From Escherichia coli (lineage in GTDB: Bacteria > Pseudomonadota > Gammaproteobacteria > Enterobacterales > Enterobacteriaceae): a DNA stretch of 64,000 bases. Location of the stretch: the NCBI RefSeq assembly GCF_041248615.1, contig NZ_CP158426.1; one strand, written 5' to 3'. A program made the translations under genes and the position numbers. The notes beneath the pieces are model-generated. The model saw only the letters and a program-made list of their open reading frames with translations, ran no database searches and was not told where the DNA came from. The stretch's first letter is position 1. Each line of letters starts with the position of its first letter. This document shows positions 5,049 to 33,065 of this stretch, one piece after another.

Positions 5049-5251
5049 AACCTCACTCCCAGCGGACGACGGCGACACCGGGTTGTCCCCAGTACCGACT
5101 CCGCATCATTGATCGCCCGGTTAAGCTCATCCAGAGAAGCCGCCGTATATTCAATTCTGCGACCATCTTTCTGGACAGACACCACCCGTTTACCGGTTAA
5201 TAAATCAAGGCGCGCCTGACGCAGCGCCTGCAGTTCAGCGACTGTAACCAT
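5045..5251 (-). CDS. head-tail joining protein W
   Basis: 68-aa ORF, same length as lambda gpW, with GKRVVSVQKDGRR motif. Confidence 0.8.
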   Translation of the reverse strand: MVTVAELQALRQARLDLLTGKRVVSVQKDGRRIEYTAASLDELNRAINDAESVLGTTRCRRRPLGVRL

Positions 5252-7205
5252 TCACTCCTCCGGACAGCTTCGCTGCCAGTTCTTTAAGGGTTGGCCGGGT
5301 CGTCTCTTCTTCCCGGGATTTTGCCAGTACAGCCAGATCAAGCTGCCAGCGTTGCACGGACACACGTAATGCCGCGTAGGCATACACCAGGCAGTCCAGC
5401 GCTTCGTTACGCCGCTTTTTGTTATCCCACAGCAGACGCATCTTTCCTTTTTCCCACTTCTCCACAAGCTCTTCCGCGACCAGTTGCTGCGCCTCTGTCT
5501 GCGAAAAAATCTCCGGATCATCAGGAAAACGGATAGCATACGACGTGGCTTCATCCACAGGCGTGGGATCGGCTTTCATACGGGCATAGAGAATTTCTTT
5601 TGCGGTGTCCGTCCCCACTTCACACAGATACACGCCCCGCTGATTGCGGGTTTTTGGCATGGTGATCACCGGCTTGCCATAGACAGATGCGCCTTTTACC
5701 GGCAGCACCCGGAAAACACCGTGTTTTTTTGACCTCTGATAAACGATTTCGCCATCGATCCCCCCGATGTCCCAGCAGACACGGGAAATGGTCATTTCGG
5801 TTCCGTCTGCATGGCGGTATTTTTTGTTGATCGCCGCATCCACACGTAACAGCGTCTCTTCCTCATCGGGACGCCCCATAATGATGATTTTATCCACCAG
5901 AAAGGCTTCCTCTCCCGGAGCCCATCCCCAGACATACATCTCAAAACGGTTTCGCTGCGAGTCAATGCCCGCCGTCAGATAAACCACCCGGGCAGGCACC
6001 GCCGCCGTGTAACGCACAACCTTATCCATCAGCACCTGGTGATCGAGTTTTTCGCCCACAGCCTCTTCCCAGGTCTCGCCCAGCGTGGTGTTCACAAAGG
6101 TTTTCAGGCCGTTGGGATCTTTCAGTGCATCCAGCCAGTCATAGACAATCTGTACCCAGGTGGTGAACGGACTGTACGCCGTCCAGATATGGAAAGTGAT
6201 GGAGCGCGGCGGCGGAATTTCATCACCCCGGGCGCTGAAAAACATCAGGCCGTCACGGGTCCACATGCCCGTGTTTTCACAGATCCACCGCCCGTTACTC
6301 TGGTCAAGCTCAGACTGATGGATCACACAGCCATGATGCTCACAAAGGTAGAAAACACTTTCTGGCTTATTCTTCTCCCACTTAAGACCGAAAGGCGAGG
6401 CATCATCGCCAAATTTCAGATACTGCTCCTCCCCACAGTGCGGACAGGGCACATAAAAACGCATGAAGTGTGCCGACTCGTTAGCGGCTTTTTCGATCTG
6501 GCAGGAGCCTTTGATTTTAGGCGTCGAGCCGCGAATGGATTTTGGCCATACAGAGCCCTCAATACGTTTATCCCCCAGCAGGGTTGGCGAACCCTCTTTT
6601 TCAACATCCGGTTCGAACGAGGAAAGCTCGTCATAACAGACCACATCCACGGATTTTTCACGGTAGTTTTTTGCTGCCGCACCACCCAGACACCAGAACC
6701 CCACACCGGAGGAAAAACGCTTCAGGGTGAGCGTATTATCGCGGTGTTTTCTTCCGAACCATGGAGCCAGCTCCAGCAATGCAGGAACATCCCTTATCGT
6801 TGGCTCAACATGAGATTTCATAAAATCTTCAGCAGCTGAGTCCGTGGGCTGAAAAAGAAGGCTGTTGCGTGATTTATGCTCAATAAAATAAGCCTCCACT
6901 CCCAGCAACATCTTTGTATAACCAACACGGGCAGATTTAATCAGGTTAACCGTGCGAATCAGATCGTTGCCCATACAGTTCATGATGCCAACCTGAAACG
7001 GCAGTGTTTCCCATCGCCCCGGGGTATAAGACGACTCTTTAGGAAGGTAATAATGTTTATTGGCCCACTGAACTGTCGTCAGTGGAACAGGAATAATGAG
7101 AGATAAAAGCCCTGTAGCTATCGCACCGGCTGCATTAGCTGCCTTCTGCGCGTCTGAAATCATCGATCCACCCGCCCACGTTTTCACCGGCCTTAGCTGC
7201 AACAT
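5235..7205 (-). CDS. terminase large subunit (lambda gpA family)
   Basis: 656-aa ORF; motifs [43 protein letters not shown] as in lambda gpA. Confidence 0.9.
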
Positions 7206-7683: not shown

Positions 7684-7799
7684 GAAAACAACCCATTATC
7701 AAATACAAGGCCCGACATGAAAACGCCAGAAAAAGGCATTTTCGGACACTTTCATGTCGGACCTTTACGGATGCAATATTAAAAAAAACAAAAAGTTAT

Positions 7800-7880
7800 A
7801 TTCGAGAAGTACCGACACGATTTTCCCTGAAAAATTTTCATAAATAGTGAAAAACCGCGAGGTCGCCGCCCCGTAACCTG
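7800..7880 (-). other. cos site (cosN core about 7860-7871 plus flanking terminase-binding region)
   Basis: minus strand reads GGGGCGGCGACCTCGCGGTTTTTCACTATTTATGAAAATTTTTCAGG, near-identical to the lambda cos sequence as I recall it; lies upstream of Nu1. Confidence 0.75.
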
Positions 7881-8019
7881 TTGGATCGACGGAAAGGACC
7901 CGAAAACGAGAATAATTATCACTTACAGCAAGAATCGAATCTGATCTATTATGGTGCTTGCTATTATGTGCCGGCACAAGTGCGTCGTTTACCGTCATTT
8001 CACACAGAGGCATCATCAA

Positions 8020-27097: not shown

Positions 27098-28285
27098 ATG
27101 ACCACTTTTACTAAAGAACAATTAATAGAGATGATTAAGCGCAATATAACGGTTATGGATCGTTATCCTGATTTAGTAACTGCACAAATGGATCTGGAAG
27201 TATACAAAATTGCGCTGGCATCACTGGAAGCAGAACCAGTTGCTTATATTTTCAAACATCCGGCCGGGAAATTATTCTGGGCTTTAACGGATGAAAGCAA
27301 TAAAGAGCAACCGGACGTTATTCCTGTTTATGCTGACTCACCTGCGCCGGTTGTGCCGGATGAAATAGACGTAAACGATGTGCCAAGGGCGGTGACATAT
27401 TTCAAGACACACAGAGATTGTTACGCAGATGGCTGGAACGCCTGCCGCGCCGCCATGCTTCAGTCCGGAAACTTTCGGGAAAACAAGAATTCGTCAACCA
27501 ATAATTTTCGGGAAATCGCGGAAACGTCAACCAACTATCCGGTAATTCCTAGTGAGGTGTTGTCCGCAATCCAGAAGGTTGCCAAGATTCGTGCCGATTT
27601 CGATGATTTTGACGGTGACAGGCGAGGTATCGGTGATTGTCTGGATGAGGCTGAGCAAGAGCTTATCGTTACCATTAACAAATATGCCAGTCAGTTGGCA
27701 GCAGAACCTATAGCGCCTAATGACGTTCGAGAGCAGCAGACAGCCGTTCCGCCAGTTCCAGAAATACAGGCTGATGTCGCGCAAGCAATTGAAAATCTCA
27801 AGCAGAAGTTAGTGGAATGCAATCGCTATAACTACTGTGCAGATGCAGTTAAAGGCGTAGAGGATGCCTGCCGTGCTGTTAGCTATAGCCAAGCCGACAA
27901 TCAGCCAGCATCTGGCAACCAGGCTGCCGAATCCAATCGCGATAATGAGTGGACTGGCAATCCTGATATTGATAACGCCATCATCATGCTCGACCGCATA
28001 GATACGCTGGAAAATTGCGATGATGACCGTATTGAGGCTGTTAAGGCTGTTTTGCGTAGACTGGCTGGCAACTATCCGGTAACTCCGGATAGTTGGATAA
28101 GCTGTAGTGAGCGAATGCCCGCTCAAGATGATTGGATTTTAATTTATTCAAAGCACGGCGAGTATATGGCAGGACAGGTACAAGGGGAATACGTGGAGTT
28201 GAGCGACGGCACTTTATCGTGGTTAGGGAACGCCTTGTACTGGATGCCTCTACCAGAACCGCCGAAGGAGGTTAACCGTGGCTAA
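27098..28285 (+). CDS. hypothetical phage protein with C-terminal DUF551-like domain
   Basis: 395-aa ORF; C-terminal WISCSERMPAQDDWILIYSKHGEYMAG typical of DUF551 from memory. Confidence 0.5.
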   Translation: MTTFTKEQLIEMIKRNITVMDRYPDLVTAQMDLEVYKIALASLEAEPVAYIFKHPAGKLFWALTDESNKEQPDVIPVYADSPAPVVPDEIDVNDVPRAVTYFKTHRDCYADGWNACRAAMLQSGNFRENKNSSTNNFREIAETSTNYPVIPSEVLSAIQKVAKIRADFDDFDGDRRGIGDCLDEAEQELIVTINKYASQLAAEPIAPNDVREQQTAVPPVPEIQADVAQAIENLKQKLVECNRYNYCADAVKGVEDACRAVSYSQADNQPASGNQAAESNRDNEWTGNPDIDNAIIMLDRIDTLENCDDDRIEAVKAVLRRLAGNYPVTPDSWISCSERMPAQDDWILIYSKHGEYMAGQVQGEYVELSDGTLSWLGNALYWMPLPEPPKEVNRG

Positions 28286-28966: not shown

Positions 28967-29203
28967 ATGTCTCGACTAATCACTTTACAGGACTGGGCTA
29001 AAGAAGAATTTGGGGACTTAGCACCAAGTGAGCGAGTTCTGAAAAAATACGCGCAAGGGAAAATGATGGCCCCACCCGCTATAAAAGTTGGTCGCTACTG
29101 GATGATTGACCGAAATTCCCGTTTTGTAGGAACGCTTGCAGAACCGCAACTCCCAATAAACGCAAACCCAAAACTCCAACGGATAATCGCTGATGGCTGC
29201 TAG
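28967..29203 (+). CDS. xis: excisionase
   Basis: 78-aa ORF overlapping the int start; Xis/AlpA-like KVGRYWMI motif. Confidence 0.75.
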   Translation: MSRLITLQDWAKEEFGDLAPSERVLKKYAQGKMMAPPAIKVGRYWMIDRNSRFVGTLAEPQLPINANPKLQRIIADGC

Positions 29204-30335
29204 ACCCCGATCTCACAAAATCTCTATACCCAATTTATATTGCAAATTAGATAAGCGAACCGGAAAGGTATATTGGCAATACAAACATCCACTATCCGGT
29301 CGTTTTCATAGCTTAGGAACTGATGAGAATGAAGCAAAACAAGTTGCTACTGAAGCAAATACCATTATTGCTGAACAACGTACCCGACAAATATTAAGCG
29401 TCAATGAGCGTCTAGAAAGAATGAAAGGCAGGCGCTCAGACATTACGGTGACAGAATGGCTTGATAAATATATTTCTATCCAGGAGGACAGGCTGCAACA
29501 TAATGAACTAAGACCCAACTCCTATCGGCAAAAAGGCAAACCCATTCGTCTTTTCCGTGAGCATTGTGGAATGCAACACCTCAAGGATATTACCGCACTT
29601 GATATTGCCGAAATAATTGATGCTGTAAAGGCTGAAGGTCATAACAGGATGGCGCAAGTCGTGAGAATGGTGTTGATCGACGTCTTCAAAGAAGCACAAC
29701 ACGCAGGACATGTTCCGCCAGGATTTAACCCAGCGCAGGCAACAAAACAACCGCGAAATCGAGTAAACCGCCAAAGATTATCACTGCCCGAATGGCAGGC
29801 AATATTTGACAGCGTAAGCAGACGGCAGCCCTATTTAAAATGCGGGATGCTACTTGCTCTTGTCACTGGACAACGTTTAGGCGATATCTGCAATTTGAAA
29901 TTCTCTGATATCTGGGACGACATGTTGCACATTACTCAGGAAAAAACCGGTTCAAAACTTGCTATTCCGCTTAACCTGAAATGCGATGCTCTGAATATTA
30001 CCCTTCGTGAAGTTATATCTCAGTGCAGGGATGCTGTTGTTAGTAAATATCTGGTCCATTACCGTCACACTACCTCTCAAGCAAACAGAGGAGACCAGGT
30101 GTCTGCAAATACTCTTACAACGGCTTTTAAAAAGGCCAGGGAAAAATGTGGCATAAAATGGGAGCCAGGAACTGCGCCCACATTTCATGAGCAGCGATCT
30201 CTGTCAGAACGGTTATATCGGGAACAGGGTCTGGATACGCAAAAGTTGTTAGGTCATAAATCCAGAAAAATGACCGACCGATACAATGATGATCGTGGTA
30301 AAGACTGGATTATCGTAGATATCAAAACAGCATAG
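29193..30335 (+). CDS. int: tyrosine integrase (e14/phage 21 icd-targeting type)
   Basis: 380-aa ORF with C-terminal catalytic region (HEQRSL...LGHKSRKMTDRY); adjacent to the icd 3' end. Confidence 0.9.
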   Translation: MAARPRSHKISIPNLYCKLDKRTGKVYWQYKHPLSGRFHSLGTDENEAKQVATEANTIIAEQRTRQILSVNERLERMKGRRSDITVTEWLDKYISIQEDRLQHNELRPNSYRQKGKPIRLFREHCGMQHLKDITALDIAEIIDAVKAEGHNRMAQVVRMVLIDVFKEAQHAGHVPPGFNPAQATKQPRNRVNRQRLSLPEWQAIFDSVSRRQPYLKCGMLLALVTGQRLGDICNLKFSDIWDDMLHITQEKTGSKLAIPLNLKCDALNITLREVISQCRDAVVSKYLVHYRHTTSQANRGDQVSANTLTTAFKKAREKCGIKWEPGTAPTFHEQRSLSERLYREQGLDTQKLLGHKSRKMTDRYNDDRGKDWIIVDIKTA

Positions 30336-30345
30336 AAAATAGCCA

Positions 30346-30382
30346 GTTTTGGGGAAGGGTTTTGGGGAAAGTTTTGGGGAAG
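30346..30382 (+). repeat. three tandem 12-13-bp direct repeats GTTTTGGGGAAG next to int
   Basis: units start at 30346, 30359 and 30371, between the int stop and the icd terminator; candidate arm-type Int binding sites. Confidence 0.5.
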
Positions 30383-30402
30383 ATTTTACATCATCATAAA
30401 AC

Positions 30403-30425
30403 AACGGGCGTGTTATACGCCCGTT
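30403..30425 (-). terminator. icd intrinsic terminator
   Basis: stem ACGGGCG/CGCCCGT with 7-nt loop; on the minus strand it is followed by TTGTTTTATGATG. Confidence 0.7.
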
Positions 30426-30448
30426 ACAATATTTAACACATGTAGTGA

Positions 30449-31699
30449 TTACATATTCTTGATGATCGCATCACCAAACTCTGAACATTTCAGCAGCTTA
30501 GCGCCTTCCATCAGACGTTCGAAGTCATAGGTTACGGTCTTCGCATTGATTGCGCCTTCCATACCTTTAACAATCAGGTCTGCGGCTTCAGTCCAGCCCA
30601 TATGGCGCAGCATCATCTCAGCGGAGAGAATAATAGAGCCAGGGTTAACTTTGTCCTGACCGGCATATTTCGGCGCAGTACCGTGGGTGGCTTCAAACAG
30701 GGCGCATTCGTCACCGATGTTTGCGCCTGGGGCGATACCGATACCGCCGACCTGTGCAGCCAGAGCGTCAGAAATGTAGTCACCGTTCAGGTTCATACAG
30801 GCGATAACATCATATTCAGCCGGACGCAGCAGGATCTGTTGCAGGAATGCATCAGCAATCACATCTTTAATGACGATCTCTTTGCCGGTATTCGGGTTTT
30901 TAACTTTCAGCCACGGGCCGCCGTCGATCAGTTCACCGCCAAACTCTTCACGCGCCAGCTGGTAGCCCCAGTCTTTAAACGCGCCTTCGGTGAACTTCAT
31001 GATGTTGCCTTTGTGCACCAGGGTCACAGAGTCACGATCGTTAGCAATTGCGTATTCGATCGCGGCACGGACCAGACGTTTGGTGCCTTCTTCAGAACAC
31101 GGCTTAATACCGATACCGCAATGTTCCGGGAAGCGAATTTTCTTCACGCCCATCTCTTCACGCAGGAATTTAATCACTTTCTCGGCGTCGGCAGAGTCAG
31201 CTTTCCATTCGATACCCGCATAAATGTCTTCCGAGTTTTCACGGAAGATAACCATATCGGTCAGTTCAGGATGTTTAACCGGGCTTGGGGTGCCCTGATA
31301 GTAACGTACCGGACGCAGGCAGATGTAGAGATCCAGTTCCTGGCGCAGGGCAACGTTCAGAGAACGAATACCGCCACCAACCGGAGTGGTCAGAGGGCCT
31401 TTAATGGCAACGCGATATTCACGAATCAGATCAAGGGTTTCAGCAGGCAGCCAGACATCCTGACCATAAACCTGTGTGGATTTTTCACCGGTGTAAATTT
31501 CCATCCAGGAGATTTTACGCTCGCCTTTATAGGCTTTCTCGACTGCAGCGTCGACCACTTTCAGCATGGCTGGGGTTACATCTACACCGATTCCATCACC
31601 TTCAATGTAAGGGATAATCGGATTTTCAGGAACGTTGAGTTTGCCGTTTTGCAGGGTGATCTTCTTGCCTTGTGCCGGAACAACTACTTTACTTTCCAT
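30449..31699 (-). CDS. icd: isocitrate dehydrogenase (NADP), with prophage-associated 3' end
   Basis: 416-aa ORF, full-length Icd; C-terminal residues ...[20 protein letters not shown]. Confidence 0.95.
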
Positions 31700-32280: not shown

Positions 32281-32730
32281 ATGGATACTACCGAAGAACG
32301 CAATGGAACATATTTCTACAGAGGACACCCGAACCTGTCCAAAATAGAACTACTCAACGTCATATTCCTTGAAGAATTCTGTAAGGAATTGGGGATTGAT
32401 TCGGTATCAGGTGCAGCAATCTTATCTGGTCAACCGTGGCTGGGTACAAGAGCGAAGCCGCAAGGGGCAACCCTGGGAACAAGTGTTGTCTCAAAGTATG
32501 CGCGTATACTGATGAGAGATGCACGCATGCCTTTTGGTATTTCTGTTCATACACCAGTGGGTGTAAGGATGCAGAAATCTAATAAGCTTGCTGCAATTAT
32601 CGCTCGTTGGGTCCCGTGGATTGGTTGGGCTTCACTGTCGATGAGTCTTTACAGGGTTTCGACTCGTACCCAGGAAAAATACAATCTGATTGCCAAACCT
32701 CAAGACCGTATTAAGTGGACTTCCTTCTAA
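32281..32730 (+). CDS. hypothetical protein (149 aa), first gene of an overlapping pair
   Basis: ORF-track entry; no family assigned. Confidence 0.55.
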   Translation: MDTTEERNGTYFYRGHPNLSKIELLNVIFLEEFCKELGIDSVSGAAILSGQPWLGTRAKPQGATLGTSVVSKYARILMRDARMPFGISVHTPVGVRMQKSNKLAAIIARWVPWIGWASLSMSLYRVSTRTQEKYNLIAKPQDRIKWTSF

Positions 32731-33065
32731 TGGCGACAACAATCACAGACGAAGTTTTAGCACTGTTCCGTGATGAGATTCCAGGTTATCAGGATGACCA
32801 CGGGAAGGAAATTCCGTTAGAACTGGACTCTGATTTGTTCGACTATCCACGAGATGATTTAGAGGACGCTATACGGAAATACAAAGAGAGGTTTGGGATT
32901 AACCTGGATAATCTGGACTGGTCTTTGTACCTTCCATGGGAGTCTGCACCATTGCTTCAACGATGGTTCAAGCTCAAGCGGGAAGAGGTAGAAACAACAC
33001 GTTTACCGTTAACTGTACGGATGTTTGCAGAATCAGCAGAAGCGGGAAAATGGCTGTATCAGTAG
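32715..33065 (+). CDS. hypothetical small acidic protein (116 aa), overlapping the upstream ORF by 16 nt
   Basis: ORF-track entry; acidic composition; no family assigned with confidence. Confidence 0.55.
   Translation: MDFLLMATTITDEVLALFRDEIPGYQDDHGKEIPLELDSDLFDYPRDDLEDAIRKYKERFGINLDNLDWSLYLPWESAPLLQRWFKLKREEVETTRLPLTVRMFAESAEAGKWLYQ

Follow-up and report, generated by a model that had tools for sequence, protein, structure and literature searches.

It is a textbook case that phage 21 and the element e14 integrate in icd and bring with them a phage-borne replacement for the 3' end of the gene. In lambda-family systems, the presence of the same motif on both arms of attP is a hallmark of arm-type integrase (Int) sites, and the arm consensus of phage 21 as against that of e14 was already explored experimentally in the 1990s. 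Wang et al., in 1997, reportedly placed the minimal phage 21 attP at between 366 and 418 bp, bounded by repeated dodecamers that were proposed as arm sites; the same work is said to have reported attP deletions and swaps of the arm consensus for 21 and e14, with the outcome that phage 21 needs its own arm consensus. Our full-text literature searches returned secondary mentions only of the arm-type sites of phage 21, and the announcement of the phage 21 genome does not discuss attP. The phage 21 sequence record (OL657228.1) gives the order excisionase, tyrosine integrase, attP subsites, terminator and ICDH-like protein. It labels a stretch of 37 bp 'integration site attP consists of 3 subsites P1P2P3; consensus YYTTCCCCAAAA', and it calls its icd end 'ICDH-like protein; 99% identical to last 53 AA of ICDH'. 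Lambda, with its sites P'1-P'2-P'3, likewise has a heterobivalent Int with a PF09003 domain and an arm-site cluster that abuts the 3' end of int: in the lambda record the 'int 4' binding region (27814-27854) overlaps the end of int, and two Int-binding regions lie on the other arm. The NC-SV prophage of E. coli NC101 and the 50icd and 61icd prophages are also among the closest known systems.

Here we describe the icd locus in a window of 64,000 nt of Escherichia coli DNA, the whole stretch that was analysed. E. coli NRZ14408 (NZ_LT599825.1) matches the window with 100% identity, and the RefSeq annotation of that region lists an excisionase, a site-specific integrase and icd. We assign the following features, in window coordinates:

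1-30612, no strand: the in-window part of a phage 21/ev017-like lambdoid prophage (phage-genome matches and an icd pseudogene at the far end).
28967-29203, plus strand: xis, excisionase, 78 aa (Pfam PF07825 Exc, E 6.7e-06; RefSeq and phage 21 annotation).
29193-30335, plus strand: int, lambda-family heterobivalent tyrosine integrase, 380 aa (PF09003 and PF00589).
30346-30357, plus strand: predicted arm-type Int site, copy 1, GTTTTGGGGAAG (attP-subsite annotation of phage 21; kept in diverged relatives).
30359-30370, plus strand: predicted arm-type Int site, copy 2, GTTTTGGGGAAA, one mismatch (same annotation and conservation basis as copy 1).
30371-30382, plus strand: predicted arm-type Int site, copy 3, GTTTTGGGGAAG (same basis again).
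30396-30448, minus strand: phage-borne 3' untranslated end of icd with its intrinsic terminator (host homology from 30396; terminator scan and inverted repeat; phage 21 annotation).
30401-30427, minus strand: hairpin of the icd terminator, followed by a T-run (terminator scan and inverted repeat).
30449-30612, minus strand: phage-derived 3' coding end of icd, codons 363-416 and the stop codon (phage matches end at 30612; identity with ATCC 25922).
30449-31699, minus strand: icd open reading frame, 416 aa (complete reading frame).
30603-30612, minus strand: putative strand-exchange (core/overlap) interval, TGCTGCGCCA (from junction polymorphisms).
30613-31699, minus strand: host-derived 5' portion of icd, from codon 1 to the first base of codon 363 (collinear with a prophage-free icd, L005).

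A reading of this DNA made earlier from its letters alone (the sequence-only reading) had placed a prophage in the 3' end of icd, and comparison with known phages bears this out. The segment 29000-30612, which runs from xis through int and the repeats to the phage-borne icd end (icd'), shows 100% identity with phage ev017 and 98.3% with phage 21, and the match ends at 30612. Across 5613-30612, phages PhiR57_1, PhiR63_2 and ev017 cover 69-77% at 99.5%, and the prophage overall is closer to these three than to phage 21. Among the 25 phage records listed by Megablast, 24 lose their match at 30608-30612 or earlier. Phage 21 (M61865.1, OL657228.1) has the same xis-int-triple repeat-terminator-icd' order and an identical 37-bp array; its icd' block differs from the one here at 12 of 215 positions. 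The copy here is integrated, with host icd 5' DNA beyond 30612, where phage 21 has its P arm. The xis gene overlaps the start of int by 11 nt, and int, which ends with TAG at 30333-30335, encodes a protein that is 100% identical to the Int of ev017 and shares 376 of 380 residues (98.9%) with that of phage 21. Residues 1-71 make up the PF09003 arm DNA-binding domain (E 1.8e-28; a score of 98.8 bits where the cut-off is 22) and the PF00589 match has an E of 7.8e-24; R228, K251, H332, R335, H355 and Y364 align with the catalytic residues of lambda Int and are invariant, which makes the R-K-H-R-H-Y set complete. Judged by these matches, the prophage is of the phage 21 type, lambdoid and icd-integrating.

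The sequence-only reading had further held that the final part of icd is probably phage-derived and that a reference would be needed to place the exact junction. Homology of prophage-free strains to the window begins at 30396 and continues rightwards, and that of phages reaches 30612, so that a 217-bp block, 30396-30612, is common to attP and attB; it takes in 164 coding nt of icd as well as the 3' untranslated end, terminator included. Since identity to phages stops at 30612, the last 164 coding nt of icd and the terminator can be taken as phage-derived. The alleles of the block agree with this origin: there are 0 differences in 215 positions from the int-side copy of the unrelated lysogen ATCC 25922, as against 11 of 215 from the displaced copy of NRZ14408 itself and 12 of 215 from the prophage-free attB of LD27-1. 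Because of those 12 differences, the 3' part of this icd is not identical to that of a prophage-free strain up to the stop codon. With references, the junction narrows to the 10 bp of 30603-30612. When the two icd 3' copies are compared, the first mismatch falls at block base 68 in NRZ14408, and at block base 11 both in ATCC 25922, which carries a 21-type prophage, and in K-12, which carries e14. If these junction polymorphisms are parental and did not arise by later mutation or gene conversion, strand exchange would take place within TGCTGCGCCA.

The prophage boundary can thus be set at 30603-30612 of the window, which is of value for annotation, and the icd allele is a chimera from codon 363 on, a point of importance for any typing scheme or phylogeny based on icd. 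A far-end variant in WCHEC020031 (TGTTACGCC) was considered as a narrower bracket for the crossover and set aside, because a single junction cannot show whether an allele is of phage or of host origin. Inspection by eye for an inverted pair of core-type sites around 30603-30612 turned up nothing convincing.

A blastn comparison of 30336-30900 with the window found no second att copy inside it. The second copy, which had been expected beyond the window, is indeed there: an icd pseudogene lies at NZ_LT599825.1 3086333-3086500, about 21.2 kb to the left of position 1, and this gives the whole prophage a length of about 51.8 kb. It is flanked by iraM and, at its opposite side, by phage DNA. On the int side the order is host icd 5' part, block and phage arm, and on the far side it is phage arm, block and native downstream DNA; icd is restored by a phage-borne 3' end, and its native 3' end is displaced to the prophage's opposite end. 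By analogy with lambda, the icd-proximal junction would be BOP', the equivalent of attL. The displaced icd 3' end (L003 8334-8501) carries phage 21-like alleles, for example an AGC Ser codon where other hosts have TCA, and shows only 5 coding differences from phage 21 attP versus 13 from the attB of LD27-1. These alleles suggest an earlier phage-mediated replacement of the icd end. Near the same end of the prophage, outside the window, lies sitABCD, which encodes an iron/manganese transporter (L003 10415-15187), with IS1414 within sitD; phage 21 also carries sitA, at the equivalent place.

Between int and icd, the reading from the letters proved accurate in most respects. The distance from the end of int to the icd stop codon is 113 nt, as it had stated, and the icd frame of 416 aa is complete; both statements are confirmed. 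It had also reported three tandem repeat copies at 30346-30382. The three copies stand, as GTTTTGGGGAA(G/A), but the array is not a strict 12-nt tandem, because the copies start 13 and then 12 nt apart and a G is interposed at 30358; the last base of the middle copy is A, not G. The claim that the array stands between int stop and icd terminator holds, since the terminator hairpin is at 30401-30427 on the minus strand with a T-run after it. Tandem Repeats Finder ranked the array highest in the window (score 65) and as the sole one with more than three copies, and elsewhere within the 64 kb there is no further match to the repeat with up to one mismatch. It is to this same 37 bp that the phage 21 record attaches its attP label, so the triple repeat is an already-annotated feature of a classical phage.

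A fourth exact copy of the motif (TTTTGGGGAA), in the orientation of the others, belongs to the opposite arm: in phage 21 it occupies L001 4233-4242, and at the far end of the prophage described here L003 8617-8626. It stands 119-120 bp beyond the core, outside the window, and its offset of 385 bp is the same in phage 21 as here. The array itself lies 230-266 bp from the block start. In phage 21 the outermost copies span about 398 bp, which is consistent with the 366-418 bp that the minimal attP is said to require. A short motif is therefore repeated on both attP arms, away from the crossover, with three copies in the window and one beyond it. We hold with high confidence that this region is the integrase-proximal junction of a phage 21/ev017-type prophage in icd and that the triple array represents the int-side arm sites of attP, which Int would bind. 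The finding is correct but already known, as phage 21/e14 integration in icd with a phage-borne replacement 3' end.

The arrangement on two arms also bears on whether the repeats are sites for accessory proteins (Xis, IHF or Fis) and not for Int. It is general knowledge that lambda Xis binds tandem direct repeats in attP, and a xis gene is present here at 28967-29203; however, lambda Xis sites are on one arm only, whereas the motif here is on both. Across the 21, e14/Kp4865-4 and PPompW types, moreover, the motif changes with the N-terminal arm-binding segment of Int, and in the phage 21 record the repeats are labelled as attP subsites. We consider accessory-protein sites very unlikely on these grounds, and arm-type Int sites remain our preferred reading of the repeats. 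A degenerate inverted form of the arm motif with two mismatches, TTTTGGCTAA, lies on the far arm about 67-76 bp beyond the core (L001 4180-4189 and L003 8564-8573, both on the minus strand) and is invariant in all aligned far-end junction variants; it may represent either an additional Int site or a coincidental match.

The likeness to lambda is one of layout. The Int here is only about 35% identical to lambda Int, the sequence of the arm sites differs, and the target lies inside a protein-coding gene. The distance from core to array is about 230 bp, versus a few tens of bp in lambda, because the 217-bp icd replacement lies in between.

The e14 element of K-12 (icd/icdC) offers a closer comparison, as it uses the same attB, its homology block starts at the same place, and its exchange is bracketed to the same 10-11 bp. 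Its int lies about 3.3 kb from icd, with C0293, ymfD, ymfE and lit between them. The e14 triple repeat is not TTTTGGGGAA: at 233-266 bp from the block start it has three copies of GTTATCAAAA, which is TTTTGATAAC in reverse complement, and on the other arm one further copy stands 119 bp beyond the core. A different triple repeat in the same position is expected of arm sites matched to a different integrase, and so the loss of the repeat elsewhere does not speak against arm sites. An e14-type element was ruled out for the locus described here, in that its Int is only 60% identical to IntE and its arm repeats differ, though attB is common to both.

Two further systems extend the comparison. In Klebsiella phage Kp4865-4, the N-terminus of Int matches that of IntE, and three copies of TTTTGATAAC follow int. 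PPompW, which targets ompW, has an Int that is 51% identical to the Int here; in PPompW_699 (LC567826.1; L009 1736-1892, L113 152-283), three copies of GTTTTGCAGAG come directly after int and are followed by a 121-bp ompW duplication. At the opposite end, the distance from the duplication out to a single GTTTTGCAGGAG is 119-120 nt, as in phage 21 and e14. Across these systems the motif and the Int segment at residues 7-24 change together, with TTTTGGGGAA in the 21-type, TTTTGATAAC in e14 and Kp4865-4, and GTTTTGCAGAG in PPompW; in each type (21, e14 and PPompW) the opposite arm bears one copy in the same orientation, 119-120 bp beyond the identity block. The comparative data yield a compact rule for recognising arm sites in the 21/e14/PPompW integrase clade. 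We also put forward, as a speculative proposal that we regard as rather doubtful, a modular arm-site code in this clade, in which TTTTG is joined to about 5 specificity bases that vary in step with Int residues ~7-24, the int side has three copies at 13/12-nt spacing, and a lone copy on the opposite arm keeps a fixed 119-120 bp from the edge of the identity block, for icd and ompW alike. If such a code were true, arm specificity could be read from sequence and re-engineered.

Several IMG/VR loci, L041 (=L019), L049, L029, L020 and L032, combine a 21-type int, a TTTTGGGGAA triple and an icd' block with an arm, across the core, that carries the e14-type GTTTTGATAACC. The offset of GTTTTGATAACC is 385, which is the position of the fourth copy in 21-type phages. 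From their sequence, these loci are most likely tandem e14-type and 21-type prophages with a hybrid junction, although they might be genuine hybrid attP sites.

The same comparison weighs against the proposal that the array is a G-rich element of RNA or DNA structure in the int 3' untranslated region, which would modulate the stability or termination of int mRNA and in which the repeats would be incidental. The array does stand immediately 3' of the int stop codon, and its plus strand has T4G4-like G-runs at 30351-30354, 30357-30359, 30364-30367 and 30376-30379. Yet the arrays of e14, Kp4865-4 (TTTTGATAAC) and PPompW (GTTTTGCAGAG) are without G-runs and keep the number, spacing and position of the copies, and the fourth copy on the other arm is outside the int transcript. 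We therefore judge a structural element to be extremely improbable. An Rfam scan of the whole window gave no matches, and so no known RNA element lies in or near the array. The four G-runs within 30351-30379 (plus strand) are in principle capable of forming a G-quadruplex; this is unlikely to be a conserved function because the G-runs are absent from the e14 and PPompW arrays.

Conservation of the array was followed in Int relatives that were retrieved by protein similarity, independently of the repeat, which makes for an unbiased but small set; of its 80 Int-seeded loci, only 16 had DNA downstream of int that could be used, since the majority of IMG/VR prophage contigs break off exactly at the int stop. 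A triple TTTTGGGGAA-like array lies within about 20 nt of the int stop in 7 of the 10 loci that have a 21-type Int N-terminus and downstream DNA (Int identities of 99, 83, 83, 82, 72, 71 and 69%). All seven arrays are followed by an icd-type 3' end, with differing terminators and icd alleles. When the intergenic DNA of Int relatives 69-83% identical, with icd ends of other species, was aligned from the int stop to the icd stop, 28 of the 32 invariant columns fell in the array. In the other three loci (L089, L094 and L096) no array follows int and other DNA stands there; by analogy with e14, cargo genes between int and att could explain its absence.

These alignments leave next to no room for the array as a functionless product of chance or slippage. 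Replication slippage can make short tandem repeats, and the spacer bases between copies do vary among relatives. Against this, the array is conserved down to 69% Int identity while the DNA that flanks it is diverged or unalignable, its 13/12(11) spacing is fixed with a matched other-arm copy at a fixed distance, and the 64 kb hold no other match with up to one mismatch.

A search with the array itself, biased towards conservation because exact repeat cores were required, added 15 viral contigs, all with an icd C-terminal fragment or with the array at the contig end. A 21-type Int sequence lies near the array in 12 of the 12 contigs examined from this search and is 78-100% identical where the gene is intact. 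The sequence-only reading had proposed the repeats as candidate arm-type sites and had asked whether other icd-integrating phages lack them. The candidacy is upheld by the attP label in the phage 21 record and by retention of the array in other icd phages with a 21-type Int; among those phages, as far as these loci go, absence of the repeats appears not to be borne out. The int 3' end with the array occurs in 1678 of 5426 complete E. coli genomes (~31%), including Nissle 1917 and ATCC 25922, and a matching far-end arm in 1464 complete genomes. Up to 4 icd 3' copies are present per E. coli genome. One viral locus (L022 3869-7944) has two icd C-terminal fragments, at 5127-5276 and 7702-7944, and a 21-type int about 2.6 kb from a TTTTGGGGAA array that abuts icd, a layout that, on sequence, indicates tandem or remnant elements at the icd site.

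What is observed, namely the anatomy of the locus, its phage 21 identity, the two junctions, and repeats that are conserved and covary with the Int N-terminus, can be joined in a model of integration. Int would exchange strands within TGCTGCGCCA, 164 nt before the icd stop codon. Because this crossover lies inside icd, the phage supplies a replacement icd 3' end and terminator; the 217-bp replacement would complete the gene and keep it functional, and the native 3' end would be displaced to the far end of the prophage. With the replacement interposed between core and int-side arm sites, the attP becomes unusually long. The N-terminal domain of Int (residues 1-71) would bind the three GTTTTGGGGAA(G/A) copies and the C-terminal domains the core some 230 bp away, so that Int would bridge arm sites and core. 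Int and the four arm sites, together with Xis for excision, would assemble the recombination complex, with Xis directing excision. In the prophage, the triple array would remain beside int at the icd-proximal junction, and the far junction would keep the single site. That Int physically binds the repeats, and which sites serve integration and which excision, we infer or take from prior work on phage 21.

Two smaller observations concern the DNA around the junction. Genes for an STM2901-family protein and a DUF1493 protein are inserted between icd and rluE at 32281-33065 of the window. The pair is present in NRZ14408 and RIVM_C019217 and absent from LD27-1 and ATCC 25922, where rluE comes directly after icd, and it looks like a small variable islet beside a prophage hotspot. 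The phage-borne icd end contains two identical direct copies of an 11-nt sequence, GCGCCTTCCAT, at 30501-30511 and 30552-30562; the repeat encodes Met-Glu-Gly-Ala, which occurs twice in isocitrate dehydrogenase, and native icd has GCGCCTTCCAT too.
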